DNA from: a virus
Lineage: Duplodnaviria; Caudoviricetes
Virus record (IMG/VR): IMGVR_UViG_3300033067_001389
Coordinates: 1-54,687 of that record
Length of the DNA: 54,687 nucleotides
Reading direction: 5' to 3' (one strand)
Positions 58 to 17,468 of the stretch are shown here, one piece after another (position 1 is the stretch's first letter; each line of letters starts with the position of its first letter). Made by a program: the position numbers and the translations under genes. Under the pieces are notes generated by a model. It made no database searches. It was not told where the DNA came from and saw nothing but the letters and a program-made list of their open reading frames with translations.

Positions 58-102
58 TTGGTTCCCTTTGCGTTGTTCGGTGTTCCCGTCTGCGATGGTT
101 TA

Positions 103-131
103 TTTATCGGTTATTGGTAATCGAAAGTCAA
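103..131 (-). promoter_or_regulatory. sigma70-type early promoter TTGACT-N17-GATAAA with TACCAATAAC box in spacer
   Basis: Same architecture as four promoters at 51.0-54.3 kb. Confidence 0.75.
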
Positions 132-179
132 CAGCGTTTACCAAAAATTCGAAAACATTTTTCAAATTGTGGGCAAGCG

Positions 180-476
180 ATGGCAGGTAACCCCGAAGTA
201 TCCCCGGTCCCGCGGGACGAGTTCCGAACGTGGTTGGAGGCCGCTTTCCCGCAATTCAAAGACGTGTTTTGCTTCGAACGCGGGTACACCGGGAGGGGGC
301 GGGAGGTGTGGGTCGCCGTTGATGAGGACGGCGGGACCGCGGCGTCCGGACTCACGGCGACGGGAAAAGAAATCCGCCAGATGATGAAGATGGGGGCACG
401 GCGGATTCCCGAAGACCCAGACGACGATATTGAGGATGTCGCGCCTTTGGTGTCGCTGGACTGGTCGGATTTTTGA
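180..476 (+). CDS. hypothetical protein with acidic C-terminus
   Basis: ORF 114..476; ATG at 180 is more plausible because the upstream part is the AT-rich promoter region. Confidence 0.5.
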   Translation: MAGNPEVSPVPRDEFRTWLEAAFPQFKDVFCFERGYTGRGREVWVAVDEDGGTAASGLTATGKEIRQMMKMGARRIPEDPDDDIEDVAPLVSLDWSDF

Positions 477-783
477 CTTCCCCCGGACCGATTCGCCGAT
501 ATCATTTCAGACGAGACGTTTTCACAAAGGTTTCAATGTTCGCATTATTCGCTATATTCGGGATGATGTGCTGTTGGGTGGGCGATTGCCTGACCCTCTA
601 CGCGTCGCGGATTGGCCCCCGTCCAACGCCAAGCCGACGGGGTTCCAGATACTCCACCCCATCCCCTTCGCCCCCGCGCCGTAATTGCGCGAAAACTTCG
701 AAAGACGCTTCTATGTGGGGCGCGGGTTGCCAATCACCTGCGCCCCGTTTCTTTGCGCTATGCGATAATTCCAAATCGGTGGT

Positions 784-1017
784 ATGATGCCGCAACATCG
801 CAAACCGTCCCGCATCGCCACAAACACTCACAACGTTTGCCCGGCGTGTGGAAAAGACATCCCGCCCGGTGTGATGGGGCGGTCGTTTGGGGACACGTCG
901 TTTCGGGCGGCGAGAAAAGCGACGACCGAGATACGTTGCCCGCATTGCGATGCGGTGCTTGCGGTGCGATTGGATTATTGGTTTACCCTAACATACGACC
1001 CCGCGCGCGAGACCTGA
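784..1017 (+). CDS. small zinc-ribbon protein
   Basis: CPAC...CPHC pairs; ends 1 nt before the portal ATG. Confidence 0.6.
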   Translation: MMPQHRKPSRIATNTHNVCPACGKDIPPGVMGRSFGDTSFRAARKATTEIRCPHCDAVLAVRLDYWFTLTYDPARET

Positions 1018-1018
1018 A

Positions 1019-2626
1019 ATGCTGTCGCCTCTTGCAACAAATCGACAGGTCGAAGCCGCTAATTGGCTGTCCGACAATTTCCCATTGATGTATCGGGCGG
1101 CGAGCGCTCCCACCACCAATTACGCGATTCGCTCCGCCCTCTACGGAATGATTGCATCGCGGCTGCTGGACTCCGGAAGCCGTGACATCGACACGGAGGC
1201 CGGGTATCTGCCGATTATTTCGGTGGCGGCGTATGGGCAAATGTACGACCGGGAAGGGCTCGGGCAACGCGTTGTCCACTTGTGGTCGGATGAATGCTGG
1301 TTGGCGACCCCCACGTTCCGCGAGACGGAGCGGGACAAAGAGACAACGTGGGAAACAAACTGGAAGGCGTGGGACCGCAAAACGCGATTTGTGCGGTCGC
1401 TTTACACATTGGATCAGATTTCCGGGGTGGGGCATTTCGGGGCGATGTTTCTCGGGCTGTCGGACAAACTTTCCCCGGACCAACCTGTGAAGGGGTGGGA
1501 AAGGGGCGAACCGGAATCACCCGGCCGCGAGTTGCAATTACTGTTCACGCGATGTTTTGACGAACGGTCGGTGACGATTGACAAGTTCGACACGGACCCC
1601 ATGTCGCCGCGCTTTGGGATGCCGTCCTACTACCGGTTCAATCTCAACACCACAAACCCGCTCGCGGACGCGGTAGAGCCGAACAAACCGAACCACGTCA
1701 CGGTCCATTGGTCCCGCGTTATTCACTATGCGGACAATTGCCGTTCGTCGCCCATCTATGGGGTCCCGCGGCAGCGCCCCGTGTTTAACTATCTGTTGAA
1801 CGTCCGGAAAATCGCCGCGGGCTCGCCTGAAATGATGTGGAAGGGCGGTTGTCCGGGGTTGTCGTTCGAACTGATGCCGGAACTGCTGACGTCCGGGCAA
1901 TCGGTGCAGATCGATAAAGAGGCGCTGCGGGAGGAGATGCAACGGTTTTCGGACGGGTTGCAACGGTATGTAGCGGTTGAAGGCGTCACGACCAAAACCC
2001 TCCCGGTCCAAGTCGCCGATCCCGGCCCCCATATCGACCAACAACTTCGTTTAATTTCCATCACGATGGACGTTCCGAAACGTCTGCTGGAGGGTTCGGA
2101 ACGGGGGGAACTGTCGTCGGAACAGGACGGCGACAACTGGAAGATGCGGGTCCAGAGACAGCGCGAGATGTACCGCGTCCCCGATCTCGTCGAACCGGCC
2201 ATTGAACGTTTGATGTTGTTGGGCGTTGTCCCGCAACTGGAAGACCTGATTATTGGATGGGGTACGGAAAAATCCCTCACACCTGAAAAGCGGGCGGACA
2301 TCGCCGAAAAACTTACCCGCGCGATGGGGGCGTATGTCGCGCAGGATGTCAGTCTGTTGGTTCCTCCCGAAATCTGGTTGCGCGAAGTGTGCGGAATCGA
2401 GGAGGAGGTGGTCGATGCCATCAGCGACGAACAGGACAATTGGTTGATGCTGGAGGAGGCGCACGATGCCGCAGCGAACACGCCCGAGGGGACCGCGAGT
2501 GATGGGGGCGGCGCTCCGCCAGCGTCGGGACCGCAAGGCGGCGATGGTGGCGATAACAGCGACCCACAAGATGGGAACGCCGACCGCAAACGCCCGCCCG
2601 CCAGAACCGCGGCGGCGACGTCTTAA
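1019..2626 (+). CDS. portal protein, DUF1073-like
   Basis: 535 aa, first gene of head module; DPMSPRFGMP and VHWSRVIH motifs typical of DUF1073 portals; low-complexity acidic tail. Confidence 0.8.
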   Translation: MLSPLATNRQVEAANWLSDNFPLMYRAASAPTTNYAIRSALYGMIASRLLDSGSRDIDTEAGYLPIISVAAYGQMYDREGLGQRVVHLWSDECWLATPTFRETERDKETTWETNWKAWDRKTRFVRSLYTLDQISGVGHFGAMFLGLSDKLSPDQPVKGWERGEPESPGRELQLLFTRCFDERSVTIDKFDTDPMSPRFGMPSYYRFNLNTTNPLADAVEPNKPNHVTVHWSRVIHYADNCRSSPIYGVPRQRPVFNYLLNVRKIAAGSPEMMWKGGCPGLSFELMPELLTSGQSVQIDKEALREEMQRFSDGLQRYVAVEGVTTKTLPVQVADPGPHIDQQLRLISITMDVPKRLLEGSERGELSSEQDGDNWKMRVQRQREMYRVPDLVEPAIERLMLLGVVPQLEDLIIGWGTEKSLTPEKRADIAEKLTRAMGAYVAQDVSLLVPPEIWLREVCGIEEEVVDAISDEQDNWLMLEEAHDAAANTPEGTASDGGGAPPASGPQGGDGGDNSDPQDGNADRKRPPARTAAATS

Positions 2627-5600
2627 CCCTATCGACGTCGATCCGTCCCGGACGTTCGCACTCCGCAAAAAAGCGGTAGCGGATACGGACAGGCGGTTCC
2701 GCGCGCTGGAAAAGGCTATCGTCGATCTGGTTGGGAAAGAGGACGTTTTCGGGTTGGGGGGTGGGACGTCCCCAACGGGGAACAGTCGGTGGGCGTTCAC
2801 GACCACGCCCGAGAAATTGGGGCTTTTCCAGACGTGGTTATCCGGGCAGGTGTCCGCGGGGATTCTGGAAGCGAAAACTGGCCCGGACGGACCGGAGCCG
2901 TGGCAAGCGCCCTACGTCAAATCCGCCCATCAAAAGGGCGTCGCGCGGGCGTATGCGGACGCGAACAAGGCGAGTTTGAACGCTAACCCCATCGCCTATA
3001 AAGGGGGATATTCTCAATTCGTTCAAGACGCGTTTTCGTCCCCGGTGATGACGTCCAAAGTCGCGATGATTGTCCAACGGGACTACACGCAATTGAAGGG
3101 CATGACGGATGCCATGTCCCAGCAATTGGGACTGACGATGGGGGAAGCGATTTCGCGGGGTTGGGGTTCGGAAAAGACCGCGCGGGAGTTGGTCAAAAAG
3201 GTATCGATCTCGAAACAACGCGCCCGCACCATCGCCCGAACAGAAATCATCCACGCCCACGCGGAAGGGCAGTTAGATTCTTTCGAGTTGTTGGGTATCG
3301 ACGATATTGCCGTTATGGCGGAGTGGACCACGGCGGGGGACGGCGGGGTGTGTCCCCTGTGTCAACCGCTGAACGGGGCGGTCATGAAAGTTTCGGAGGC
3401 GCGGGGGCTCATCCCCCGGCATCCGAATTGCCGTTGTGCGTGGCAACCGGCGAACATCGGCGAGTCACCCGCCAAACAAATCTGGGGGAAGGATCGGAAA
3501 AAGGCGTTTGCGGATTCCGTGGCGGCAGAGGGTGCGAAGGGGGCCGACCCGGTGGAAGTGCGCGCGAAGTCTCGGTGGAAAGGCGCTGATTCTCGTCTAT
3601 CTGATAATCCCGAGGGGTCACAATATGCTGCGGTCAAATTGGGACAAGCTCAGTCGGACGCCAAGCGACTGGCGATGGCAGAAAAGGCTCTTGCAGAGCA
3701 GCAAGCCGCGGAAGCGGCGGCAGCAAAAGCCGCGGCGGATTTGCTCGAAAAGAAAACACAGACCGCTATCAATCTGGGGCTTGGGTTGGATGCTGGCGAT
3801 ATTGCGGATGATGGGATTTCTCCGAATGTGAGTGGTTACAAAAAGTGGTTTGCGGGTGTTGGATTGACGGAACAACAAATCGCGGACGCGATGCCCACCA
3901 TTCAAACATGGATCGACGCGCCCACGGGCGACATGTCGAAAACCGTGACACAGATGGTGAATTACGTCAACGCCACGAAAGCGCAGGTAAAGGCCGCGGC
4001 AGAGAAAAAAGCGTTGTTGGATAAATACGATCTGGTTGAGGCTGATCTATTTGAAGTTTCGGACGGGACCCAATCGTTCACGACGGGCAAACTGAAAAAA
4101 CTGGCGGCCGATTTTGCCTACGATGTGGAAAATGGGTCTCCGCAATATCAAAAGATGTGGGGACGTCTTTTGAATGCGGAGGACTGGAAAGCACAATTGC
4201 AGGTAATCGAATCCTCACAAGCCGCAGCGTGGGCGGCGAAACAGTCGATTGCCGAAGCGGCGAAACAGGCCAGTATTGCCACGGCGAAAAAATACGGCGT
4301 GTCTGTAGATGATTTGTTGTACGTGCCCAACGAAAAAGCATACGTGGTCAGTTCAACGATGTTGCAAGATATGGCGACGTCCCAAGGGGTGGCGCTGGAT
4401 TCCGATTTGTTTAACGCGCTTGTTTTGGAGCCCATCGACGTGGTCGATGCTGGGTTGACGGCGGCGAAGGCGAAAATCATCGCGGTACAAAAAGCGACCG
4501 CGGAAGCCGCACAACAGGTGGCGGAGGCCGCTACGAAATCGGTTTCGACCAAGGTGGCGGACGAGTTCACGGCGGCGAAATTGAAGTTCTACAAATACAA
4601 AGGCGCGGGCATCACGTCGAAAGGGACGTTGAACAAACCCGCCCTGACGGCGGTGGTGAAAGGCCAGAATTTGGGGACGGATTTTGAGGAATCGGAAGCG
4701 CTGAAAAAAGCACTCAAAACAGCCACCAACGCAACCGAACAGGTGATGGCGGTGGAAAAGGCGGCGATTGATTGGGCGTCGACGCAAGGCGTCACCAACC
4801 CGGTTCCCGCGGCGGTTGTGGTTGAGGCGGTTCGTCCCGCGGGCGCGCCCGATCCCACCAAGTTGACTTTCGTCCGCTCGCTCCCCGGTTCGACGCGTCC
4901 CAATTTGATGCGCGACGAGTCGACCGGGAAGTTGTGGGTCGTCAAGTCGGGATTGAATCCCGAACATCTGAAATCGGAGGCGCTGGCGGACGACCTCTAT
5001 CGAATCATGGGGGCGAAAGTTCCGGCGTCCGGGATCATCGAGACGCGAGACGGTCCATTAAAATACGCGGAATTCATTCCGGATGGACAGACATTGGACA
5101 AGGTGACGAAAGCCGAATTCAACGCGGTCCGGGAAGAGTTGAAAAAACACTTCGTCGCGGATGCGTTGTTGAGCAATTACGACGTGGCCGGGTTGAGTCT
5201 CGACAATATCTACGTGGCGGGCGGTGTGGGATACCGCATCGATAATGGCGGTGCGATGTTGTTCCGCGCGCAGGGCGGGGCGAAGGCGTTCGGGGTGGAA
5301 GTGACCGAACTGAAAACGTTGCTGGACCCCAAAATCAACGCATCAACAGCAAAGGTGTTCGCGGGAATTTCTGATGATGAAATTCGAACACAAGTCGATG
5401 CTATTGTGTTGAAGCGGGAGCGAATTTTGTCCGCCATCCCGGATACCGATCTGCGGGACAAGATGGCGAAGCGTATCGACTGGTTGCAGGACACGTACGG
5501 GACCAAAGTCGTGGAGGCCCCGCGCCCGGCGCTGGGGAAGCGCGCCGCGGCGTACACGGTGGACGAGAAGACGGTCGAACGGATTCGCGACGCGCGGGCG

Positions 5601-7187
5601 AACGGACTCACCATTGCCGGGGACCGGGGTTCTATCGAGGACGTCGGGGTGCTCGTGTGGGAGGAGACCGATGCGAACGGAAACGCGGTTACCAAATTCT
5701 GGTTAAAGGCGACGCAAAAAGGTTCTGACGACATCATTCAAACGTTGGGCATCAAGGCCGCGGTAGGTTCATCGTCCGCCCCGAATGACGGGTATGCGTC
5801 CACGTGGGTGGAGATGGCGAAAACCCTGAACACGCATCAGGCGGATAAGGCGTTTAATCAATCCAAAGTCACGGCGTTTCTGAACAACTTCAACAACTTG
5901 AAAAACTACCAACCGGATGACCCGGTGGAAGTCGCCAAAAAGGCTCACTATCTGGCGTTGGGGGAACAGTTGAAAGCGGCACATACCGCGCTGCTGGACT
6001 CGCAACCGGCGACCATCCCTTTCGCGACGGCGTTTGACCCGTCGACGGTGGCCGTCAAACAGGCGGCGAAACCGACCGTCAAGACGGTGACGAAACCTCT
6101 GACGTTCCAGCAAGCAACCGCTACCGATGGGCGATTGACGCGAAACACGTCGGTCACGGCGATTTCCGGGACGTCCGCCCATCACGCTGATTTCGACGGG
6201 GCGGCGGTCAAATTTGTTCCCGTGATGGATGGACGGAACAGCCGGTCGGGGCTCGCGTTCGAAGGGTTGGTGGAAATCACAGTCGACGGTCCGGCGTCCG
6301 TCGACACGGTTTCCCGCGGGCTCGCGACACTTCGGGAAATCGGCATCGATACCCGGCCGCCGACTCCCGCCTATGAGGAGGCGCTTTATCTCCATCGGGG
6401 CGTCTATTTGCGGGGTGAGGCGGATTCCCAATCGTATAAGCAGATATGGGAAAACCAGACACTCGCGGATGATGCAAAAGTCGTCGCGATGAAAAGCTGG
6501 ATTAAAGAGAATATGGGCATCGACGTTGAAAAAATCGGTGACGCCTACAACCCGACGGGGGTTACAAAGACGAGTTTCGGTCACGGCCAGCGATATTGGA
6601 CGCGATGGGATTTGCCTCCAGAAAAGGCGGCATCCGAGTTGAAAGACTTGCGGTTGGTTCACACATCCGGCGGGTTGTATTCGGGCAATATCGACGCGCT
6701 TAAGGCATCGTTGGAAGGCGTGTTGCAAACGGGCGGGGAGTTCACGTCGACACTGGACCGTGTTCGCAAGGGGGTTTCGTTGTCTGCTGGGGCATCGTCT
6801 CAAACGGACATCACGACAGGCGGGGCGAGTTATTTTTTCACGCGCATCAGAAAAGCCGATAAGACGTCTGGAGCCGGGGTGGCGTGGGTCTTCAAACCCG
6901 AACTACTTTCAAGACAGGATGCGGTGTCGTATTCCGGCGACTCTTTCGGGCGCATTTCCGGTTTTGGTAGTCGGGCGAGCACTGTTGATGAGTATCGGTC
7001 CTACGCTAGCAGTTCGTCCAATGAAACCATTTTCAAAGGCGGAATTTCTGTGTTGGATGATTTGGAATACATCCAAGTGGAAAACGAGACACAGAAAAAA
7101 GCGGTGGTAGCCATCTTCAAGAAAAACAAACTCGCCAAGCTCCCCGATGGGCGGAAGGCGGAAGACGTTGTAAAGGTGATTAAATGA
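2571..7187 (+). CDS. MuF/SPP1 gp7-like head morphogenesis protein with long extension containing a kinase-like (HipA/PI3-4K-like) domain and a C-terminal ADP-ribosyltransferase-like domain
   Basis: MuF motif RARTIARTE...VCPLC...IPRHPNCRC; kinase-like VVK...E..A..LY...DALLSNYD...DN...RIDNGG; C-terminal LVHT...TGGASYFFTR...NETIFK; start taken at ATG 2571 (ORF open from 2466). Confidence 0.8.
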   Translation: MGTPTANARPPEPRRRRLNPIDVDPSRTFALRKKAVADTDRRFRALEKAIVDLVGKEDVFGLGGGTSPTGNSRWAFTTTPEKLGLFQTWLSGQVSAGILEAKTGPDGPEPWQAPYVKSAHQKGVARAYADANKASLNANPIAYKGGYSQFVQDAFSSPVMTSKVAMIVQRDYTQLKGMTDAMSQQLGLTMGEAISRGWGSEKTARELVKKVSISKQRARTIARTEIIHAHAEGQLDSFELLGIDDIAVMAEWTTAGDGGVCPLCQPLNGAVMKVSEARGLIPRHPNCRCAWQPANIGESPAKQIWGKDRKKAFADSVAAEGAKGADPVEVRAKSRWKGADSRLSDNPEGSQYAAVKLGQAQSDAKRLAMAEKALAEQQAAEAAAAKAAADLLEKKTQTAINLGLGLDAGDIADDGISPNVSGYKKWFAGVGLTEQQIADAMPTIQTWIDAPTGDMSKTVTQMVNYVNATKAQVKAAAEKKALLDKYDLVEADLFEVSDGTQSFTTGKLKKLAADFAYDVENGSPQYQKMWGRLLNAEDWKAQLQVIESSQAAAWAAKQSIAEAAKQASIATAKKYGVSVDDLLYVPNEKAYVVSSTMLQDMATSQGVALDSDLFNALVLEPIDVVDAGLTAAKAKIIAVQKATAEAAQQVAEAATKSVSTKVADEFTAAKLKFYKYKGAGITSKGTLNKPALTAVVKGQNLGTDFEESEALKKALKTATNATEQVMAVEKAAIDWASTQGVTNPVPAAVVVEAVRPAGAPDPTKLTFVRSLPGSTRPNLMRDESTGKLWVVKSGLNPEHLKSEALADDLYRIMGAKVPASGIIETRDGPLKYAEFIPDGQTLDKVTKAEFNAVREELKKHFVADALLSNYDVAGLSLDNIYVAGGVGYRIDNGGAMLFRAQGGAKAFGVEVTELKTLLDPKINASTAKVFAGISDDEIRTQVDAIVLKRERILSAIPDTDLRDKMAKRIDWLQDTYGTKVVEAPRPALGKRAAAYTVDEKTVERIRDARANGLTIAGDRGSIEDVGVLVWEETDANGNAVTKFWLKATQKGSDDIIQTLGIKAAVGSSSAPNDGYASTWVEMAKTLNTHQADKAFNQSKVTAFLNNFNNLKNYQPDDPVEVAKKAHYLALGEQLKAAHTALLDSQPATIPFATAFDPSTVAVKQAAKPTVKTVTKPLTFQQATATDGRLTRNTSVTAISGTSAHHADFDGAAVKFVPVMDGRNSRSGLAFEGLVEITVDGPASVDTVSRGLATLREIGIDTRPPTPAYEEALYLHRGVYLRGEADSQSYKQIWENQTLADDAKVVAMKSWIKENMGIDVEKIGDAYNPTGVTKTSFGHGQRYWTRWDLPPEKAASELKDLRLVHTSGGLYSGNIDALKASLEGVLQTGGEFTSTLDRVRKGVSLSAGASSQTDITTGGASYFFTRIRKADKTSGAGVAWVFKPELLSRQDAVSYSGDSFGRISGFGSRASTVDEYRSYASSSSNETIFKGGISVLDDLEYIQVENETQKKAVVAIFKKNKLAKLPDGRKAEDVVKVIK

Positions 7188-7621
7188 TCGCAGGCGTCAC
7201 GGATCGGATGCGGTTGAGCACACTGGAAGCCGGGGGATGCGTGGTGATGGTGTCGCTTGATGCCGTACCTATCACGTCGTTCCCTGTGGCGCGCATCTGG
7301 TTCAACGAATCCGGCGACACGCTCCACGTCATCCAATTGGGTGCCGAGTCTCAACAGCATGCGCACGTGTGCTACCAACGGCGTATCACACATTGGCACA
7401 GTCGGGATATTGAATTGGATGCTGGGGATGGGTGGTCGTGGTACGTCTGTCCGATTGAGGAGGGACCATCGGACAGGGCGGAGGCGTGGCGGGGCGACTT
7501 CGCGCGATGGAAGGCGGTGCGGGAAAAGCCGGAAGTTCGCCGTATCATAAACGAATTTTCGGAAAGTGTTTTTGGGGTGATGCCCACGACGAAAGAGGGG
7601 AGGCCGGACACGGTCGCTTGA
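7184..7621 (+). CDS. hypothetical protein, candidate immunity protein for the MuF effector
   Basis: ATGA overlap with the MuF stop codon; small size; position typical of MuF toxin-immunity pairs. Confidence 0.45.
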   Translation: MIAGVTDRMRLSTLEAGGCVVMVSLDAVPITSFPVARIWFNESGDTLHVIQLGAESQQHAHVCYQRRITHWHSRDIELDAGDGWSWYVCPIEEGPSDRAEAWRGDFARWKAVREKPEVRRIINEFSESVFGVMPTTKEGRPDTVA

Positions 7622-7654
7622 GTCGGGGCGCTTCTATTCAAAGGGGGTTGCAGG

Positions 7655-7996
7655 ATGCTTGTTTTGACCGTCAGGGAAGACGATGAGGTGTTCTTGAACA
7701 ACACCAGAACAGGGGAACAGATGGCGGTCCTGATGCTGTCTGTTTCGCCGACTCGGTGCCGTGTCGGTTTTGAGTTCCCGCCACACTATTCAATTTTGCG
7801 CGGGGGGCTGAAAGACGATAACGCGGCTGATATGCCGAAGATGGCCGCCCGCCAACGTCTCCGCGATTATGTGATGGACCACATTTTGAAAATGGATGTT
7901 GAGGATGTGGCGAACCGTCTCGGGCTTCCCGAGACGGGCGGAAGCGAAGGGCGGGTGGTGCGGGATGCTCTGCACGAATTGCGACATCTTCAATAA
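7655..7996 (+). CDS. csrA: carbon storage regulator CsrA-like RNA-binding protein with C-terminal extension
   Basis: MLVLTVREDDEVFL...MLSVSPTRCRVGFEFPPHYSILRGGL aligns by eye with CsrA MLILTRRVGETLMI...[26 protein letters not shown]. Confidence 0.8.
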   Translation: MLVLTVREDDEVFLNNTRTGEQMAVLMLSVSPTRCRVGFEFPPHYSILRGGLKDDNAADMPKMAARQRLRDYVMDHILKMDVEDVANRLGLPETGGSEGRVVRDALHELRHLQ

Positions 7997-8026
7997 ATAA
8001 CCACGAATTCACGGCGTGTTGCAATG

Positions 8027-8065
8027 CAGGCGGGGTAGTCCTACTATCCCGCCTGTTGTCGTTTT
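8027..8065 (+). terminator. GC-rich hairpin with imperfect U-tract after csrA
   Basis: CAGGCGGGGTAG-TCCTA-CTATCCCGCCTG followed by TTGTCGTTTT. Confidence 0.55.
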
Positions 8066-8071
8066 CCAGCC

Positions 8072-8096
8072 ATACAAGGATGTTCTTTCATGGATG
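8072..8096 (+). promoter_or_regulatory. CsrA-binding sites over the RBS and start codon of the holin-like gene
   Basis: ATACAAGGATGT (8072-8083) matches the CsrA SELEX consensus RUACARGGAUGU at 12/12; second CATGGATG at 8089-8096. Confidence 0.65.
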
Positions 8097-8437
8097 CCGT
8101 CATCTCGACCGGGTTGCGAGTGCTCGAAGCGCAAGGCGCGGGCGCGTTGTTCATGGTGGCGATGCTGTTCATGGGGTGGCGTGTGATTGTGTGGGCCGCG
8201 CCGCGGGCGGAAAGGGCGCTTAACGCACACATGGAACACATGCAAAAGGTGGACAACCTTTTGACGCGGTTTGCCGAACGACAAGACACCATCGACAAGC
8301 GCACCGAGGACATGCATCAGACGCTCGGGCGGACAGTCGAAACGTTGGAAGACGCGGTCCGAAGTGTGGGTCAGGCTTGCCGCAGCGTGCGATGTACCAA
8401 GATCGACTGTCCGTTTATTCCGCCCGAGGGGCGGTAG
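8090..8437 (+). CDS. small membrane protein, holin-like (N-terminal TM helix plus coiled coil)
   Basis: Hydrophobic GAGALFMVAMLFMGWRVIVW segment followed by an amphipathic helix, a BhlA/UviB-like layout. Confidence 0.5.
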   Translation: MDAVISTGLRVLEAQGAGALFMVAMLFMGWRVIVWAAPRAERALNAHMEHMQKVDNLLTRFAERQDTIDKRTEDMHQTLGRTVETLEDAVRSVGQACRSVRCTKIDCPFIPPEGR

Positions 8438-8556
8438 GTTTTTTATGGTTACCACAACCACGCATTCCGGGTGTACGCTTTGCAGCGTGTTCCATCGATT
8501 GGCGTCGCGGCAAGTCGGGGCAATAATTGATACCGCCCTGACAACGAATAAGGCAA

Positions 8557-8610
8557 ATACCAATAACACGGAATATCATCCACAATCGCGGGATACCAAT
8601 AACACGGAAT
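8557..8610 (+). repeat. 18-bp direct repeat ATACCAATAACACGGAAT x2 (36-bp period) upstream of the capsid operon
   Basis: Exact copies at 8557-8574 and 8593-8610 in an AT-rich intergenic region. Confidence 0.85.
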
Positions 8611-8652
8611 GTAATCTGTTGGCGCAGAATCGCGAAAAGACGTGAAATGCGT

Positions 8653-8681
8653 TTGATACTTGCGGCGGTATAGAATAGATT
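8653..8681 (+). promoter_or_regulatory. candidate late promoter TTGATA-N17-TAGATT
   Basis: Near-consensus hexamers with 17-bp spacing about 50 nt before the protease ATG. Confidence 0.45.
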
Positions 8682-8732
8682 CCGACTCGTGACACATCGC
8701 AAGACGTTATTCACACCATCGCGAAGGCGACC

Positions 8733-10172
8733 ATGTTTCAGGCAATCACCAATAGCGTTTCCGGGGGTTCCGTTCGCACGGAATCATTCGACGGGCGCGA
8801 CCACTTGGTGGTCCCGATGGTGATGATGCGTCCGGGGGTTCTCGCGGGAAGCAACGGCCCGTTGCTTTACAACGCGGACGAAATCAGCAAAACCCCGCAG
8901 GTGTGGGACCACAAACCGGTGGTCGTATATCACCCCACCATCAACGGACAGGGCGTTTCGGCGTGCTCTCCGCAGATTTTGACGTCCCGAAAAATCGGTG
9001 TCATCCTTAACACGCGGTGGGACTCCGAAAGTCAGGCGTTGAAAGCCGAAGCGTTTATCGACCCCGAAAAAGTGAAAATCGTCGATAATCGCGTGTGGGA
9101 TGCCATTCAAAATAAGCGCGTGATGGAACTGTCGACCGGGCTGTTCGTTGACACGCGCAGCGAAAACGGCGAGTGGAACGGCCGCAAATACACCGACGTC
9201 ACCGCGAACTATCGCCCCGATCATCTGGCGGTGTTGCCGGACCAAGTTGGGGCGTGCTCCATCGCGGACGGTGCCGGGTTCTGTCGAAACTCTGACGGGA
9301 CAGACCGCAGGATTACCACAAACGCGGCGATGTCCCATTCCGATTTGTCTTCGCGCCTCTATGAGCTTATCGCCGAGAAGTACGGCAACGCGGGAGCAAT
9401 CAACACGCCCTCCGACACGTGGATTCAGGAGGTGTACGACACCTATACGGTGTTCAACCGGGGGACGCGGCTTTACAAGGTTGATTACACGGTTGATGGA
9501 AATGTGGTTAAGTTGTCCGGCGACGTGATGGAAGTGCGGCGGACGGTGTCATACGAACCGGTCACAGCGACCACCAACAGCGAGAACAAGGGGGAACGAA
9601 CCGTGCGAAATGACGTTATCAACAACCTGATTAAGGGCGGCTACTACGGCGAGACGGACCGCGACCGCCTGACGGCGATGGACGACGCGACGTTTAACCG
9701 CGTCTCGAAAATCCTCAACAACTCCGACACGCCCGCCCCCGCCCCCGCGGAATCGACGACCACGATTCCGCCCGGCGACGCTGCATTCGCCCCCGCCCCC
9801 GCGGTGAATGCGGCGGCCCCGCGGACAACGGAAGAGTATTTGGCGACGCTGCCCGCGACGGTGCGGAATATGGTGGAAATTGGTCTCAACCAATATGCCA
9901 GCAACCGGCAGCGCCTGATCTCCGAAATCGTCGGCCTGCCGGACTCGGGGTGGACGGCGGAGGCGTTGACGTCGCTGGACGACCCGACGCTGAACAGAAT
10001 TCACGGGATGGCGACCAAGCTGGCGGCGGCCCCCGCGGTGAATCCGGCGGTCCAGAACTACTTGGGGGCTGTTGGGGCGGCCCCGTTCGCGGTGAACGCC
10101 GCGGGCATGCTGCCCACCAACGTGACGGTCCCTGCGCCGTTGCCCTCTACCCCGTTCGTCCCCGCGAAGTAA
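8733..10172 (+). CDS. prohead protease/scaffold, DUF2213 family
   Basis: HKPVVVYHP, ELSTG and PDHLAVLPDQVGACSIADG motifs; Ala/Pro-rich scaffold-like C-terminus. Confidence 0.8.
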   Translation: MFQAITNSVSGGSVRTESFDGRDHLVVPMVMMRPGVLAGSNGPLLYNADEISKTPQVWDHKPVVVYHPTINGQGVSACSPQILTSRKIGVILNTRWDSESQALKAEAFIDPEKVKIVDNRVWDAIQNKRVMELSTGLFVDTRSENGEWNGRKYTDVTANYRPDHLAVLPDQVGACSIADGAGFCRNSDGTDRRITTNAAMSHSDLSSRLYELIAEKYGNAGAINTPSDTWIQEVYDTYTVFNRGTRLYKVDYTVDGNVVKLSGDVMEVRRTVSYEPVTATTNSENKGERTVRNDVINNLIKGGYYGETDRDRLTAMDDATFNRVSKILNNSDTPAPAPAESTTTIPPGDAAFAPAPAVNAAAPRTTEEYLATLPATVRNMVEIGLNQYASNRQRLISEIVGLPDSGWTAEALTSLDDPTLNRIHGMATKLAAAPAVNPAVQNYLGAVGAAPFAVNAAGMLPTNVTVPAPLPSTPFVPAK

Positions 10173-10236
10173 ACATTGGTCGGGGTGGTTTGTTTTCCCG
10201 TCCACACATCCAAAAACATAGAAAAGGGTGCTAATC

Positions 10237-11190
10237 ATGGCGGCTACAATGGATGCGAATCGGCTCACCCGTTCGCCGAACCGAATTGACCTCGACTTGC
10301 GGGGCGGGAAGCGTATTTGGGAAGGACGCGCCACGGGCGCAATCCGTCCCGGTATGCTCGTGGAAACCGTCACCCCGACCACGTGTCGCGCGTCGACGCA
10401 AAAAGGCGGACAGGTGGAACGCCTGATCTGCGACATCAATCCTCATCTCGGTATGGGGTACGTTGACGATTGGGACGCCGCTTTCGCGTCCGGCGATTTC
10501 TTGCAGGCTATCAACGCGCTGCCCGGCGACCGTCTCCGTCTCCGTCTGGCGGATGGCGTCGTCGTCGCCGCGAACGATGTCCTGATTCCGGACGGTGCCG
10601 GTTCGTTCCGCCCCGCGTCGACGTTGATCACGAACGGCCCTTTGGCGGTGCTGACGGCGGCATCCACCAACCTGACGAACACGACCACGCGAACGGTGTT
10701 CGACCGGAATTACAGCATCCCGGCGAACGCGTTGCAGGTGGGCGACGTGTTGCGTGTTCGCGGACAGGTGCGAGCGCCGACCACGAACAGCACGGATACG
10801 CTTCTGCTGGACGTGTCTGTGGGCGGAACGGCGCTGGTTGCCGGTCTGGCCGTGGACGTGGCTGATAACGACGTCGGCATCGTCGATGTTGAAATCGCGG
10901 TCCGTTCCATCGGGGCGTCTGGTTCGCTGTTCGCGTCGGGCATGATTGGGCTCGGTCCCGTGGCTTCCGCCACGATGCGTCCCGTTGCCAACAGCGGGAC
11001 GCGGGACACGACCGGCGCGCTGGTTGTGGGCATTGCCGGGACGTGGTCGGTTGCTTCCGCTTCCGACATCTGCGCTCTCCAAATGCTGACCGTCGAATTG
11101 CTCCGCCCCCTTTTCCCGTTCGCGCGGGCGGAAGAAGCGGTCGACAACAGCCTGAACGCAAACTACTACTGCACGGCGCGCGTCGCCTAG
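10237..11190 (+). CDS. capsid decoration/cement protein with inserted beta-rich domain
   Basis: Lies between protease and major capsid genes; A.GAI.PG.LV and D.L..DG.G motifs of decoration proteins. Confidence 0.6.
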   Translation: MAATMDANRLTRSPNRIDLDLRGGKRIWEGRATGAIRPGMLVETVTPTTCRASTQKGGQVERLICDINPHLGMGYVDDWDAAFASGDFLQAINALPGDRLRLRLADGVVVAANDVLIPDGAGSFRPASTLITNGPLAVLTAASTNLTNTTTRTVFDRNYSIPANALQVGDVLRVRGQVRAPTTNSTDTLLLDVSVGGTALVAGLAVDVADNDVGIVDVEIAVRSIGASGSLFASGMIGLGPVASATMRPVANSGTRDTTGALVVGIAGTWSVASASDICALQMLTVELLRPLFPFARAEEAVDNSLNANYYCTARVA

Positions 11191-11254
11191 TTGTTGGCGA
11201 AGTGAGTCGTTTTTGGGTTTTCCGGATAGCGAACATTCATAAGGGAGAAATAGG

Positions 11255-12328
11255 ATGCTTGACTTCATTCTGAACGGTTCGCCGTCCGGGAGTGTTGCGA
11301 CCGCGTTGCTCGCGACGGGCGGCGATGTGGGAATCATGCGGCCGTTTGTTGAGAACGGCCGCGCGTGGTACAACCGCTTTGACCCCGACAAGGGGAAAGA
11401 GGTGGTGTTGCCGTACACCGTCACCAACGGCGCGGCGGTGCTGACGCGCGACGACTGGATTCATTTTGACCGCGAAGTGATGGAGGCCGCCCGCCCGAAA
11501 ATGCGGTTCGTCGCCGACCTCCAAGCGGCGGGACTCAATTACAACGTCCCGAATGGGATGTCGAAAACGGTTCTGCAATACTACCGGATGTCGGAAACGA
11601 CCCCGGCAACGACCAGCATGAGCGGGTTGAAGCGGGGCACGAATGACGCGCCGGTGGCGGATTTCGTCAATTTGCCGCTGCCCATCATCCACAAAGACTT
11701 CCGCGTGGATAGTCGGATGTTGTTGGTGTCCAAAAACGGCGGGATGCCGCTGGACACGACCAACCTCCGTTTGGCGGCGGCCCGCGTCGGAGAAGAAATC
11801 GAACGTCTCCACTTGGGGACCGCGGCGTCGTTTTCGTTCGGTGGTGGGACGGTGTACGGGGCGCGGAATTTTCCGGGCCGCATCACCGGAAGCATCACGA
11901 TTCCGACCACCGGCGGTTGGGTTCCGCGAACGGCGGTCACCCAAATTCTGGCGGCGATTCAGTCGGCGAGGAACGAGTTCCACGGGGGTCCTTACCTCGT
12001 TTATTTCTCGCCCGCGTGGGAACAGTATCTGGAAGATGACTACGTTCCGGGCACGTCGAATTCCACCGACACGCTCCGGGATCGGTTGTCGCGACATGGT
12101 GCGGTTTCCAGCATTTCGATTGCGGACTTCCTTCCGGCGTGGGATGTCCTGATCATCGAAAAGACCCCCGAGACAATGCGGGTTGTCACGGGGATGGAAA
12201 TCCAGACGCTCCAGTGGAGCGAACAGGGCGGGATGGACCTTTACTGGAAAGTGATGGCCATTAAGGTTCCGCAGGTTCGCGAAGACATCTACGGGGCGAC
12301 CGGGGTCATCCACTTGACCGGGACGTAA
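11255..12328 (+). CDS. major capsid protein (HK97 fold, encapsulin/linocin-like subfamily)
   Basis: 357 aa; L..DDW...D..V...AR and LPLPIIHKDF...R...PLDT motifs; position; followed by a terminator. Confidence 0.85.
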   Translation: MLDFILNGSPSGSVATALLATGGDVGIMRPFVENGRAWYNRFDPDKGKEVVLPYTVTNGAAVLTRDDWIHFDREVMEAARPKMRFVADLQAAGLNYNVPNGMSKTVLQYYRMSETTPATTSMSGLKRGTNDAPVADFVNLPLPIIHKDFRVDSRMLLVSKNGGMPLDTTNLRLAAARVGEEIERLHLGTAASFSFGGGTVYGARNFPGRITGSITIPTTGGWVPRTAVTQILAAIQSARNEFHGGPYLVYFSPAWEQYLEDDYVPGTSNSTDTLRDRLSRHGAVSSISIADFLPAWDVLIIEKTPETMRVVTGMEIQTLQWSEQGGMDLYWKVMAIKVPQVREDIYGATGVIHLTGT

Positions 12329-12358
12329 CGCGCACTGGTGGGTGCCGAGTCGGGCGCG

Positions 12359-12393
12359 AACGGCACCGCATTCCGCGGTGCCGTTTGTTTTTT
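12359..12393 (+). terminator. intrinsic terminator after the major capsid gene
   Basis: 11-bp stem AACGGCACCGC/GCGGTGCCGTT followed by TGTTTTTT. Confidence 0.8.
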
Positions 12394-12416
12394 ACTTTAT
12401 GGGGGTTTGCGAAATC

Positions 12417-12764
12417 ATGGCGGGGACTTTGAAAACGTTCGTTTTGCAGGCGGGGAAACACATCGGCCCCGATGGGCGGGTGTACAAAAAGGGCGAGCGA
12501 ATCGCGTCCGATGAGGACTTGGCGGAACTGTTCGGGCCGGAACGGTTCGTTGAAGTGGGGGCGGCGACGCTGCCCGCGGCTGTCGGTCCGACGCTGATCG
12601 ATTTGACTGCCCACTATCAAGGGGCGGCGGAGGCCGGTTGGCGAATCGAAGCGATGTCGAACAATGTCGGGACGCTCACGGTTCTCGACGCGGCGACGGG
12701 GGATGTCATCATCGACGGGCGGACCCCGGAACAGGTGCGGAAGCGTCTCGCCGCGGTGGAGTAA
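12417..12764 (+). CDS. hypothetical head-associated protein
   Basis: ATG with GGGGGT RBS; H..PDGRVYKKGE motif common in small genes after capsid genes. Confidence 0.6.
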   Translation: MAGTLKTFVLQAGKHIGPDGRVYKKGERIASDEDLAELFGPERFVEVGAATLPAAVGPTLIDLTAHYQGAAEAGWRIEAMSNNVGTLTVLDAATGDVIIDGRTPEQVRKRLAAVE

Positions 12765-12782
12765 TCGAAATCGGGGGTTGAT

Positions 12783-13202
12783 ATGGCCGTTCGCACCGAC
12801 GCCGCAAAAGTCGCGGGCATCATTGAAGTTGATGCATCTATCGATCTCGCCCCGTTTATTCTAACGGCGTCGGCGATGGTCACCGCGCATTGTACCGGTG
12901 CGAACGGCCCCACAACCGCCTACGATTCGGACACGCTGGAACTGATTGAGCGGTGGTTGTCTGCCCACGTTTACGCGACGCGGGACCCCCGCTACACGCA
13001 AGAACGCGCGGATGTGGTGGGCGCGTCCTATCAATCGTCGGTAGCACTCGGGTTGAATAACTCCCATTATGGGCAACAAGCAATGATGCTTGATTGGAAT
13101 GGGGGTCTCGCCCGCCTGTCGAATCAGATGGTCACGGGCAAGACTCCGATCCGTCCCCGAATTTTCAGCGCGGGCAATCAACCGCCTGTAGAGATTTGGT
13201 AG
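12783..13202 (+). CDS. head-tail adaptor (DUF4054-like)
   Basis: IERWLSAH and S.YGQQAM.LD motifs; position. Confidence 0.7.
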   Translation: MAVRTDAAKVAGIIEVDASIDLAPFILTASAMVTAHCTGANGPTTAYDSDTLELIERWLSAHVYATRDPRYTQERADVVGASYQSSVALGLNNSHYGQQAMMLDWNGGLARLSNQMVTGKTPIRPRIFSAGNQPPVEIW

Positions 13203-13212
13203 GGGGTGACGC

Positions 13213-13551
13213 ATGAGCATCATTTCCACGATGCGGCGGCAGGTTGCGACACTGTGGGAGATTGTGGGGCGGGATGATTACGGGCAACCGTTGCTTTCCG
13301 CGCCGGTACAAATCAAATGCAGATGGCAGGGCGGCGGCGGGGAATATGTCACGGGAGACGGGACCCCGTTCGTGGCGGCGGCGCTGGTGTTCCCGGACCG
13401 TGTGGTGTCAGTCGGGGCGTATCTGTGGTTGGGAGCAATTGGGACAGCGCCCGCGGACCCGTTGACGACCGACGGGGTGGTTAAGGTTCGGGTGTTTCAG
13501 GCTATCCCAAACCTAAAAAACAAGGAAACGCTTTATAAGGCGGTGGTGTGA
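13213..13551 (+). CDS. head closure/head-tail connector protein
   Basis: DDYGQP...PVQIKCRW motif; size and position. Confidence 0.65.
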   Translation: MSIISTMRRQVATLWEIVGRDDYGQPLLSAPVQIKCRWQGGGGEYVTGDGTPFVAAALVFPDRVVSVGAYLWLGAIGTAPADPLTTDGVVKVRVFQAIPNLKNKETLYKAVV

Positions 13552-14003
13552 TGGCATCTTCGAAAACCGTCAAGGGGCTCGGGGCGCTGATCAAAAAAAT
13601 CAAGGGGATGGGTCCCCACATCGCCAAGCGATATTCCAACAACGTCAAGCGCGCCGGGTTGTTGTTGTTGCGACATTCCAACGAACTGGTCCCCATCGAT
13701 ACGGGAGTTTTGCGAGCGTCCGGGTATACTCGGGCAGAGGGAACCGGATTCGATACCGTGGTTTATGTGGGGTATACCACAAATTACGCGCTATGGGTCC
13801 ATGAGGATTTGGAAGCTGCCCACGGGGCAGCTTTCAACGCCAAATACGCGGATGCGATTGAAAAGGGGAACAAGCAACCGTGGAACGGGAAACCGTTCCA
13901 TAAACGCGGTGAAGGGCAGCAAGCGAGATTTTTGGCGACCCCCTTCATCAACAACCGCGACCAGTATTTTGAGATACTGACAAGCAACCTTTTTCCGAAG
14001 TGA
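13551..14003 (+). CDS. neck/tail completion protein (HK97 gp10-like)
   Basis: VPIDTGVLRASG, YALWVHE and QARFL motifs. Confidence 0.75.
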   Translation: MASSKTVKGLGALIKKIKGMGPHIAKRYSNNVKRAGLLLLRHSNELVPIDTGVLRASGYTRAEGTGFDTVVYVGYTTNYALWVHEDLEAAHGAAFNAKYADAIEKGNKQPWNGKPFHKRGEGQQARFLATPFINNRDQYFEILTSNLFPK

Positions 14004-14114
14004 TGACGGAAACCAAATCAAGGGCGAAGGATGAGAGACGTTGTTGCATGATGCAACCGCCGGGTGGGGGAACGGGCAAACTCCCACCCGGCGAATCTCT
14101 TTCGGGGGTGTGCG

Positions 14115-14753
14115 GTGTCGCAAATTTACGTTGTATCACACACTTTTCGTTCTGGTGGAACCGCGGTCGCCGCGGTGCTCCACAATTGCGGCGTTCCGTT
14201 TTTCCCAAGCATTCAAAAAGCTATCAACGGAAACGCCCCCGACGAATGGAATCCCGGCGGTCACTATGCCGATGCTGATTTTCACGCCCTGATGGTGCGT
14301 CTCCAGATTTATGGGATGCGGCGTCCCTCCGAAACGTGGGTTCCGGACGCGTCGGTCCGGGCCGAAATCGCCGCGCTGGTGCAGGAGCGGTCGGTCGCCC
14401 CGAAGTGGGGAATCAAAGGCGCGCATTCGTGGGTCGCGGCGCGCGTTCTGTTTGGGTTGGGCTATAACGTCCGCGTGATTGGGACGTCCCGCCCCCTGTC
14501 CCAATCGCAAGCGTCCTACACGGACCGCATCGGGGAGGCCTACAAAGAGGAGGCCGCGGCGTTTGTGGCCGACTCGAAAGCGATGACCGACGCGTTTTAC
14601 GCGAGTTTCGCGGGTCCGAAAATGCTTGTCGATTTTGATTCGCTTTTTGACGCCACCCGCGAAACAGTGGAATCCATCGCAGCGTTTGCAGGCGTCGACG
14701 TCACGCCCGCGGCCATCGCGTCGGTAAACCCCAATTACCGGAGATACGCATAA
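14115..14753 (+). CDS. sulfotransferase-family (P-loop) protein
   Basis: RSGGT (cf. RSGTS 5'-PSB loop)...L...G...NPGGHY.D...WGIK...R; GTG start after GGGGGT (ORF open from 14064). Confidence 0.6.
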   Translation: MSQIYVVSHTFRSGGTAVAAVLHNCGVPFFPSIQKAINGNAPDEWNPGGHYADADFHALMVRLQIYGMRRPSETWVPDASVRAEIAALVQERSVAPKWGIKGAHSWVAARVLFGLGYNVRVIGTSRPLSQSQASYTDRIGEAYKEEAAAFVADSKAMTDAFYASFAGPKMLVDFDSLFDATRETVESIAAFAGVDVTPAAIASVNPNYRRYA

Positions 14754-15376
14754 TGGCACAAACACCGTGGAAGTTTGCGCAGACCGCAACCGGTTGGACC
14801 AATGGTGGCAATATCGCCGCTGATGACGGTGCGCTGGTACAGCCCGGTTTGCTCGGGGCTGGTGTGTTTTCGGCCATCCTGAACGCGTACAATTTTGGTT
14901 TTACAACATCCGACATACCAACCGGGTCAACAATTCAAGGCGTTGAATTTCGGGTTAAGTGGCGACGGACGGCCAATGGCAGTCCTGTCGGCGTTCAGTA
15001 CGCGATGTTACGACTTAGTTGGGGGGGCAATGATGGCAACAACAAAGCGGCCAGCGTTCCCGCAATTACCAACCTCCCTACATCGTTCACGCTCGGTGGC
15101 GCGGCGGACACGTGGGGCGCAACCGTTTTGACACTGATTCCTGACGGGGAAAACGAAGTCAGGTCAACAAATTTCGGGTTTACGTTTAGGGTGTTTAATG
15201 CTGATGCAAAATACTCAGTTGAATTGGGTATTGATTGCATCGAAATGCGCGTGACGTTCACGCCTCCAGCAACCACCACCACAACCAGCACGACCACCAC
15301 GTCAACCACCACAACACCAAATCCAACACCGTCCGCCCCACAAGGGCGCTTGCGGACTCTCTTGGGGGTAGGCTAA
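14753..15376 (+). CDS. putative virion protein, beta-rich, with C-terminal Thr tract
   Basis: IPTGSTIQGVEF and TLGGAADTWG segments; tail TTTTTSTTTTSTTTTPNPTP; TAATG coupling to upstream gene. Confidence 0.6.
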   Translation: MAQTPWKFAQTATGWTNGGNIAADDGALVQPGLLGAGVFSAILNAYNFGFTTSDIPTGSTIQGVEFRVKWRRTANGSPVGVQYAMLRLSWGGNDGNNKAASVPAITNLPTSFTLGGAADTWGATVLTLIPDGENEVRSTNFGFTFRVFNADAKYSVELGIDCIEMRVTFTPPATTTTTSTTTTSTTTTPNPTPSAPQGRLRTLLGVG

Positions 15377-15691
15377 ATGATTTCGCATGTGAAATACCAA
15401 AAAATCGAAGCGTCGGTGAGTGGGGATAACACTCTAATCACCGGTGTTGCCGGTGAACGTCAAATCGTCGTCGGAATTGTGCTGGTGGCGGCGGGCACCG
15501 TCGCCGCAAAGTTGAAATCAGCCGCAACCGAAATCTATGGGCCGATGCAATTGCTGTCGGGTTCCGGGTTCGCGTTGCCGTCGTCAAACGTTCCTTGGTT
15601 GATTGGCGGCGTGGGCGAGTCGATCATCCTGAATTTGGGTGGGGCGGTCGCCGTGGGCGGATGCATCATTTACCAATCAAAGACCGATTAA
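15377..15691 (+). CDS. small hypothetical virion protein
   Basis: Abuts neighbours, GGGGGT RBS, Gly/Val-rich. Confidence 0.6.
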   Translation: MISHVKYQKIEASVSGDNTLITGVAGERQIVVGIVLVAAGTVAAKLKSAATEIYGPMQLLSGSGFALPSSNVPWLIGGVGESIILNLGGAVAVGGCIIYQSKTD

Positions 15692-15692
15692 C

Positions 15693-16142: not shown

Positions 16143-16145
16143 AAA

Positions 16146-16613: not shown

Positions 16614-16627
16614 TTTCGTGATGGGTA

Positions 16628-16670: not shown

Positions 16671-16684
16671 TGGGGGTCAAAATT

Positions 16685-17466: not shown

Positions 17467-17468
17467 GC

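Follow-up and report, generated by a model that had tools for sequence, protein, structure and literature searches.

Does a CsrA homologue carried by a phage act on the phage's own mRNA? Phage-encoded CsrA homologues are widespread, and a virus record from IMG/VR (IMGVR_UViG_3300033067_001389; Duplodnaviria, Caudoviricetes) offers a compact pair for showing whether they do: a candidate regulator, a CsrA-like gene, and a perfect candidate target, the Shine-Dalgarno (SD) sequence of the next gene, lie 75 nt apart. We analysed the whole record (54,687 bp, linear, ~74% complete by the CheckV estimate; hereafter the window) with a focus on this pair and on the downstream gene, an open reading frame (ORF) for a 115-aa membrane protein, ORF115. 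An earlier note on this DNA had read the pair as a candidate autoregulated lysis timer, possibly linked to host carbon status. We arrive at another reading, held tentatively and somewhat short of probable: a CsrA-family protein, encoded by the phage, the host or both, may block ribosome loading on an ORF115 mRNA that is already attenuated by a terminator.

A CsrA consensus site over the ORF115 Shine-Dalgarno sequence

The 12-mer ATACAAGGATGT matches at all 12 positions the CsrA consensus obtained by systematic evolution of ligands by exponential enrichment (SELEX), RUACARGGAUGU, as quoted in the accessible parts of PMC4347634 and PMC2896534. The AAGGA within it is the SD of ORF115, and the spacer from GGA to AUG is 9 nt. 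Base composition leads one to expect 0.016 exact matches over the two strands of the window. When all 2178 GGA-anchored 12-mers of the two strands were compared with the consensus, this site was the one at 12/12, none scored 11/12, four scored 10/12 and 24 scored 9/12; it is a clear outlier in the score distribution, and a search for RTACARGGATGT with at most one mismatch returned it as the sole match in the window (shuffle mean, 0.32). The earlier note had pointed to an exact consensus over this SD, and the statistics bear it out. The SD is moreover that of the gene which directly follows the record's only CsrA-family gene.

A second GGA (8092-8094), within CATGGATG, covers codons 1-2 of ORF115, 14 nt 3' of the first, as had been noticed before; it is the only other GGA within 8057-8110. 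The octamer itself is not enriched (1 found, ~0.8 expected). Spacings of this order allow a CsrA dimer to bridge a pair of GGA sites. The leader of the CsrA-like gene holds a G-rich SD, AAAGGGGG, followed by CAGGATG, the GGA of which overlaps the start codon. These motifs lie where they had been reported: the 12-mer at 8072-8083, the octamer at 8089-8096 (ATG at 8090) and CAGGATG at 7651-7657 (ATG at 7655). CAGGATG is found at chance frequency in the window (5 on the + and 4 on the - strand; ~3.7 and ~3.5 expected), and the proposed autoregulation, which rested on this one heptamer, is not supported. Elsewhere in the window, CAGGAT-type motifs also stand 5' of a RusA-like gene (34146-34709) and of the ORF at 25454-26137 (phrog_2675, 'DNA methyltransferase'). 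The next-best class of consensus matches (10/12) includes AAACAGGGATGG (39345-39356, - strand), on the ribosome-binding site (RBS) of the clamp-loader gene (38408-39340).

A diverged CsrA-family gene with a C-terminal extension

The assignment of the upstream gene to the CsrA family held up under profile, chain, alignment and model comparisons. A six-frame search gave the CsrA family 27 bits, flagged over the cut-off. PHROG 9500 ('CsrA-like regulator') matched the protein at E 0.037, and NCBIfam CsrA equivalogs matched at E 8.5e-4 and 0.028 (19.3 and 14.6 bits, far under their cut-offs of 106 and 70). The profile matches align residues 1 to ~55 with CsrA model positions 1 to ~50. In a phmmer search of 1.84 billion representatives the sole credible relative was a 72-aa CsrA-like protein (P0002; E 4.7e-4, 42% identity), which itself has a match to E. 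coli CsrA (1y00; E 1.6e-5). A repeat-rich protein of 1738 aa, P0003 (E 5.9e-4), was taken as spurious. Direct phmmer against Protein Data Bank sequences gave 0 matches at E <= 10, tblastn against 50,697 phage records gave nothing at E <= 1, viral contigs held no relative, and a homologous-protein search returned the query alone.

We aligned the protein with P0002 and 12 genomic CsrAs (alignment A3, 14 sequences; the genomic CsrAs come from 13 loci, L093 being dropped as a near-duplicate of L086). The invariant residues of A3 are M1, L2, V3, L4, R36, G38, E40, P42 and R49. In E. coli CsrA, the residues critical for RNA binding are L2, L4, R6 and R7 in strand 1 and V40, V42, R44 and I47 in strand 5. 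The phage protein has the N-terminal MLVLT start and retains L2, L4, T5 and R7; its R49 is the counterpart of R44 (chained via P0002 and 1y00), and E. coli V42 and I47 align with its I47 and L52. Five residues are inserted between strands 2 and 3. AlphaFold2 (AF2), run with A3, places strands at residues 2-7, 11-16, 22-26, 34-39 and 45-50, with predicted local distance difference test (pLDDT) values of 85-92 over residues 1-50; because the alignment drives the model, the five strands show compatibility with the CsrA fold and not proof of it. With this model, Foldseek found nothing at E <= 0.001 and the family member RsmN weakly (E 0.49, rank 11), and VIA-align (wide) placed RsmN at Z 4.0 (root-mean-square deviation 3.0, 44 aligned, 32% identity), tied with unrelated rows, with no row at Z 5. 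The single-sequence AF2 model has a pLDDT of 57.7 and gave no meaningful Foldseek match. A two-copy complex prediction for residues 1-60 (median 0.50; one control, 0.31) counts neither way on dimerisation.

The AF2 models also support the C-terminal extension of about 55 residues that the earlier note had described: helices are predicted at 57-77, 82-88 and 97-111, at pLDDT 50-70. Pfam, Foldseek and VIA-align detected no family or fold in the C-terminal ~55-60 residues, helix-turn-helix-type rows at E ~0.03 not being significant. By these comparisons, 7655-7996 is a real but very diverged CsrA-family gene with an orphan extension predicted to form three helices.

Searching with the CsrA pair gave 13 genomic loci: eight of Planctomycetota (Gimesia, Planctomycetaceae, Pirellulales, Planctomycetota bacterium), three metagenome-assembled genomes (MAGs) of Clostridia type, one Nitrospiraceae and one 'uncultured bacterium' MAG (L089), whose CsrA is of the same type as the Planctomycetota ones. 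Since peptide patterns bias the search, this Planctomycetota link is only a host hint. The earlier note had suggested a possible link to host carbon status through Csr small RNAs (sRNAs), which is not supported: Rfam finds no family at gathering score in the whole window, CsrB/RsmY/Z-type RNAs included, and the nearest genomic CsrA relatives found are mostly from Planctomycetota. In eight of eight Planctomycetota-type csrA genes (L085, L087-L092, L095), CAAAGGAATG lies ~30 nt 5' of the start, and the SD is AAAGGAG (AAGGGAA in L089). This arrangement suggests two-site autoregulation of those genes; the eight loci are closely related to one another and therefore not independent.

ORF115 and its transcript

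The downstream gene encodes a membrane protein, as had been proposed. It has one hydrophobic segment (~residues 16-38; the 19-mer window peaks at 1.92 at residues 19-37), then a long, evenly charged, predicted-helix region with 13 basic and 13 acidic residues, and a CX4CX4C tail at the C-terminus; its codon-position GC (0.63/0.45/0.74) is in line with that of the phage's other genes. Its only relative in 5.8 billion clusters is itself, and viral contigs hold none. The Atlas places nearest to it clusters of viral hypothetical proteins 101-110 aa long (0.92), and its structure rows are proteins with a transmembrane (TM) segment plus a long helix. Small size, at least one TM segment and a charged C-terminal region are found here as in holins, and the anchor-plus-helix architecture is compatible with an i-spanin. 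No holin family in Pfam or PHROGs matches at E <= 1; the best row of the lysis category is an Rz-like spanin PHROG at E 0.12. As for an o-spanin partner, the lipobox-like motif [LVI][ASTVI][GAS]C occurs in no + frame of 8000-8760, and a partner lipoprotein gene was not found. The neighbours of ORF115 are the CsrA-like gene and a prohead protease gene, in a head-morphogenesis module and not in a lysis cassette. Judged from hydropathy, ORF115 is a predicted bitopic membrane protein, and 'holin-like' describes its size and single TM segment only.

In the 93 nt that separate ORF115 from the CsrA-like gene lies a strong terminator-like hairpin with a T-rich tail that ends 5 nt 5' of the CsrA site. 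It is among the three longest-stemmed terminator-like sites on the + strand of 1-20000 (13-14 pairs), the others being at 12356-12388, just past the capsid-like gene, and at 715-748, and it is fully paired in the predicted ensemble. No promoter-like site was found directly before the CsrA-like gene or ORF115. As the hairpin ends so close to the site, it leaves no room for an ORF115 promoter, and by this layout transcription seems to get to ORF115 only by reading through the terminator. A second terminator-like site overlaps the ORF115 stop codon.

In the 295-nt gap that follows, before the protease gene, lies a pair of perfect direct repeats of 18 nt, ATACCAATAACACGGAAT, spaced 36 nt apart and ~45-95 nt 5' of a promoter-like site. 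The window has no further copy (0.01 expected). Run X2 includes a contig with 18 differences over 8508-8696, every one of them within 8549-8588, so that the first repeat, its GGA included, is altered and the second is kept. The repeats were considered as CsrA decoy sites, an idea weakened by the changed GGA; they may be a DNA site for a protein or a variable element. The promoter-like site is a consensus match only, and the number of such matches does not exceed that in shuffles. The folding of the gap (8438-8735) is unremarkable (z = -1.58).

Genomic context of the pair

The features of the locus and of its surroundings are collected in Table 1. The slot between the Mu F gene and the DUF2213 protease gene holds three genes (7184-8437), bracketed by terminator-like sites. 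The protease has 622 relatives at E <= 1e-10 (the best ~40% identical); the protease gene alone as query yielded no close locus. We compared 80 related loci from phages with a protease 32-41% identical, fetched via alignment A2. For slot length, 61 of the 80 were used, the 19 with less than ~3 kb upstream being left out, and 56 of the 61 had a large upstream ORF. Among these 56 the gap ranges from 17 to 2735 nt (median ~790) and its content varies. Since none of the 80 loci has the cassette and slot content varies, we regard the three genes as lineage-specific cargo in a variable slot. A blastn search of 7100-8800 against GenBank phages gave zero matches. Contigs of three runs of one other study, labelled riverine metagenome, carry pieces at least 99% alike; two substitutions in them fall inside cassette genes (7970 C>T and 8284 A>G), both synonymous in the + frames (n=2), a very small hint at selection on the CsrA-like and ORF115 proteins.

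Table 1. Coordinates of the features discussed in the text
Feature	Position	Strand	Basis or remark
Portal gene	1019-2626	+	phrog_146, E 2.2e-45; ORF preceding the Mu F gene
1573-aa head protein gene, Mu F domain at residues 225-325	2466-7187	+	Pfam Phage_Mu_F, E 1.6e-12; left border of variable slot
ORF145, first cargo-slot gene	7184-7621	+	start overlaps Mu F gene stop (ATGA)
Leader of CsrA-like gene: SD AAAGGGGG (7640-7647) and CAGGATG (7651-7657)	7640-7657	+	GGA of CAGGATG overlaps start codon at 7655
CsrA-like gene, 113 aa	7655-7996	+	CsrA-family profile matches
Terminator-like hairpin (8026-8056): 14 pairs, 8 G-C, 3-nt loop UCC, T-rich tail	8026-8066	+	in gap between CsrA-like gene and ORF115
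ATACAAGGATGT, 12/12 match to CsrA SELEX consensus	8072-8083	+	over ORF115 SD
CATGGATG, second GGA at 8092-8094	8089-8096	+	over ORF115 codons 1-2
ORF115, predicted bitopic membrane protein, 115 aa	8090-8437	+	hydropathy
Second terminator-like site: 6 G-C pairs followed by TAGG and T6	8420-8444	+	overlaps ORF115 stop codon
Two perfect 18-nt direct repeats ATACCAATAACACGGAAT	8557-8574, 8593-8610	+	in gap before protease gene
Sigma-70-like promoter match (TTGATA, 17 nt, TAGATT)	8653-8681	+	5' of protease gene; consensus match only
DUF2213 prohead protease/scaffold gene	8733-10172	+	Pfam DUF2213, E 1.8e-5; phrog_760, E 2.2e-32; right slot border
Head-decoration-like protein gene	10228-11190	+	Pfam/PHROG profile scan
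Capsid-like virion protein gene	11255-12328	+	profile scan
Tape measure gene	17454-21281	+	profile scan

The first gene of the slot, ORF145, has a codon-position GC like that of the other genes (0.60/0.48/0.68); Pfam, PHROGs, NCBIfam and PADLOC contain no family for it, the Atlas gave nothing above chance, and the 80 related loci gave one marginal match (L046, E 0.0013). Its size is that of a FliW. A FliW-like CsrA antagonist (PF02623) was considered and set aside, as neither Pfam nor NCBIfam matches ORF145 to any family at E <= 1 and the Atlas has no FliW row. PADLOC found no defence-system family among the three cassette proteins.

The + strand up to ~29.6 kb carries structural genes, including neck and tail protein genes, and the - strand from there on carries replication and recombination genes (polymerase, clamp loader, sliding clamp, helicases, primase, UvsX-like, RusA-like, exonucleases). 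Among the 56 ORFs scanned, no terminase, integrase, endolysin, holin or spanin family was found at E <= 0.001, and the window contains no tRNA genes. With no integrase among these ORFs, prophage expression is not indicated. The portal gene begins at 1019, in a record without a terminase gene; this gene is probably in the quarter of the genome that the record lacks, and the lysis genes may be there too. In the 1573-aa head protein the Mu F domain is the sole recognised part, at least 1200 other residues being without assignment; the protein is similar to the 'polyvalent' Mu F fusions of which PMC11879866 speaks in connection with PTXU04 gp25. The DNA polymerase (phrog_17) is split across two adjacent ORFs of the - strand, 41326-42579 and 39337-41040, which cover profile positions 554-828 and 834-1233. 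A 50-aa ORF in the replication module (37749-37901, - strand), with one strong hydrophobic segment and a basic tail, is a further candidate for a small membrane protein, and a 650-aa protein past the tape-measure gene, at the end of the + block (26109-28061), combines a family-2 glycosyltransferase domain with a C-terminal DUF6171.

Discussion

Taken together, the cassette may be read as three cargo genes in a hypervariable slot of the head-morphogenesis operon of an uncultured tailed phage. The terminator-like hairpin would attenuate the transcript, so that ORF115 would be transcribed by read-through only, and a CsrA-family dimer on 8072-8083 and 8092-8094 would occlude the RBS and repress ORF115 translation. 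The dimer could be formed by the co-transcribed phage protein, by host CsrA or by both. We infer binding, repression and read-through, and which CsrA would act, from the sequence features described above, and blocking by a CsrA dimer is proposed by analogy with the geometry of the ColE7 cei-cel leader (see below). Because repressor and target would share one transcription unit, limitation of dose or a short pulse is favoured over a delayed lysis clock; the most economical function, and the one we favour, is to limit the dose of a potentially harmful membrane protein or to confine it to a short pulse.

Several observations weigh against this proposal, and they have to be set beside the alternative that the match is a coincidence, in which the 12-mer is a good A-rich SD with a chance fit to the consensus, the CsrA-like protein has host mRNAs as its targets or does not bind RNA, and ORF115 is not under its control. 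A GGA is expected in any strong SD, and ACA(A)GG(G/A) stands before several other starts in the phage, so that only the flanking AU and UGU of the 12-mer are truly extra information; the second-best match (10/12) also lies at an RBS, that of the clamp-loader gene. The motif was picked after the sequence had been read, and if a single mismatch is tolerated, one or more matches turn up in 27 of 100 shuffles of the window. The loop closed by ACA/UGU in which the earlier note had placed the GGA does not fare well either: such a SELEX-type hairpin is predicted to be unstable here (+1.0 kcal/mol), the local minimum-free-energy fold (-4.7 kcal/mol) weakly pairs the SD with a downstream U-rich UCUU, and CCAU with AUGG, and the whole leader folds no better than shuffles (z = +1.0; 168 of 200 at least as stable). 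The regulator, for its part, is very diverged. Pfam PF02599 scores 26.2 bits on the protein (E 7.9e-6), just under the cut-off of 27, and the protein is an orphan with P0002 and P0003 as its only matches among the 1.84 billion representatives. In the N-terminal RR pair V6 replaces R6, and G50 and G51 follow the key arginine where relatives carry acidic residues (E45 and E46 in E. coli), which puts its specificity for an E. coli-derived consensus in doubt. Finally, CsrA-like, P0002-like and ORF115-like ORFs occur in none of the 80 related loci (best E 3.5, 1.3 and 0.54), and none of the other-run contigs spans 8072-8096. What coincidence leaves unexplained is the rarity of an exact match, the score gap below it, and the position of the site on the one SD that follows the record's only CsrA-family gene; we consider it rather unlikely, though a reading to be reckoned with.

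A reading along the lines of the earlier note, in which ORF115 is a holin or another lysis protein (e.g. an i-spanin) and the CsrA pair an autoregulated lysis timer tied to host carbon via Csr sRNAs, draws on the small size, single TM segment and charged C-terminal domain of ORF115, which is among only five small coding-strand ORFs with a strong hydrophobic segment in a window where no other lysis gene is recognised. One Atlas structure row is a cluster with Phage_lysis in 19% of its members, and the ColE7 lysis gene is repressed by CsrA according to the available text of PMC2896534. Yet the holin and spanin searches came back without a family match, ORF115 has neither an adjoining endolysin nor, in the + frames of 8000-8760, a lipobox-type partner, and it sits in a head-module slot with different content in each relative. 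As the record is incomplete and without a terminase, the real lysis cassette may be in the part that it lacks. A repressor co-transcribed with its target gives no delayed onset by itself, and neither the heptamer at the csrA start nor the sRNA search lends the circuit its remaining parts; we regard the lysis timer as highly improbable. Somewhat less so, though still unlikely, is that the CsrA-like protein is a host-takeover factor, made late and possibly packaged with the Mu F-type internal head protein and injected together with the DNA, or acting late on host mRNAs and Csr-controlled defences; the ORF115 site would then serve host CsrA, and ORF115 would be made only when host CsrA is titrated. 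The gene directly follows that of a giant Mu F-domain protein in the head module, a neighbourhood shared with the csrA of Bcep22, and phage CsrAs have been linked to purified virions in JC1 (one peptide; PMC9144972) and to plaque size in PTXU04 (PMC11879866), in the parts of those papers that are available. Set against this are the C-terminal extension, without a recognisable fold or family, and the perfect site in cis to a phage gene, which is most simply explained by a pair acting together. It is tempting to speculate further on a self-contained phage CsrA switch, in which the three helices form an effector or anchoring domain, the target lies in cis, and the gated protein decides lysis or the exclusion of competitors, the gate being released as GGA-rich late phage or host RNAs titrate CsrA. 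We give this little credence; if true, the timing of the phage would be sensitive to the Csr state of its host, in a lineage, possibly one infecting planctomycetes, that is not known to have Csr circuitry.

The preferred reading, in which a CsrA-family protein represses translation of an attenuated ORF115 mRNA, has consequences either way. If the phage protein binds the site, recognition of the canonical sequence has survived wide divergence and the gain of a domain, which gives a handle on the roles of phage CsrAs, and terminator and CsrA site would form a compact control module for a membrane protein. If the site is not bound, the locus holds an ordinary diverged accessory csrA gene in a variable head-module slot.

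Comparison with known systems

The cassette resembles phage morons and the cargo slots of late operons in the variable length of its slot, its absence from the 80 related loci and the terminator-like sites on both sides. It differs from morons in that no promoter-like site of its own was found before ORF115 or the CsrA-like gene, and no integrase was found. The protein resembles CsrA, RsmA and RsmE (PF02599; 1y00, 2bti, 2jpp; RsmN, 4kji) in its MLVLT start, five predicted strands, GxE(A)P turn and R44-equivalent arginine. Unlike bacterial CsrA, it has V for the first arginine of the RR pair, GG after the key arginine, a 5-residue insertion, and an extension of ~55 aa in place of a single short helix.

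As accessory cargo of a tailed phage, the CsrA-family gene has counterparts in Bcep22 gp54, JC1 gp47, PTXU04 gp28 and csrA genes of Vibrio phages. In Bcep22 the order is portal (gp51), two genes, CsrA-like gp54 and major head gene (gp55), so that here as there the CsrA-like gene stands between portal and capsid genes. The numbering of JC1 is consistent with this, csrA (gp47, called a moron) falling between portal gp45 and major capsid gp48 in the accessible part of PMC9144972, which reports JC1 CsrA in purified virions from one peptide only. In PTXU04 the csrA homologue has an effect on plaque size; what it does in the life cycle of the phage is, according to PMC11879866, untested. Bcep22 gp54 is a protein of 64 aa without BLASTP similarity to the 113-aa protein here, and the present gene differs from other phage csrA genes in its predicted three-helix C-terminal extension, followed by a terminator-like hairpin and a perfect consensus site. 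In Bcep22 (L083, 31170-31460), the leader of the major head gene holds GCGCAGGATGTGCG (31412-31425), a short palindrome-like stem presenting a GGA; Bcep22 may thus offer a second instance of a GGA site downstream of a phage csrA.

The closest likeness in geometry is to the cei-cel leader of colicin ColE7, where, in the available text of PMC2896534 (Yang et al. 2010), ACAAGGAGU covers the SD on the 3' side of the T1 terminator, and CsrA uses two GGA sites to repress translation of the lysis protein Cel without a change in mRNA stability. Here, too, an intercistronic terminator-like stem-loop is followed by a candidate CsrA site over the SD (ACAAGGAUGU as against ACAAGGAGU in ColE7), and a mobile element carries a gene for a small membrane protein with two GGA sites, in our case read from sequence. 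The first GGA of ColE7 lies in the terminator loop, as described there, whereas here the loop is UCC and the start codon carries the second GGA. Cel has been proven to be a lysis lipoprotein and ORF115 is a protein known from its sequence, and the regulator of ColE7 is host CsrA, whereas here a CsrA-family gene lies directly upstream in cis. Occlusion of an SD by CsrA, control of a mobile-element lysis gene by CsrA, and phage CsrA homologues, including those in head modules, are thus already known; new here are an orphan, extended CsrA, a 12/12 site in cis to it, and the arrangement of terminator-like hairpin plus site within a head-module cargo slot.

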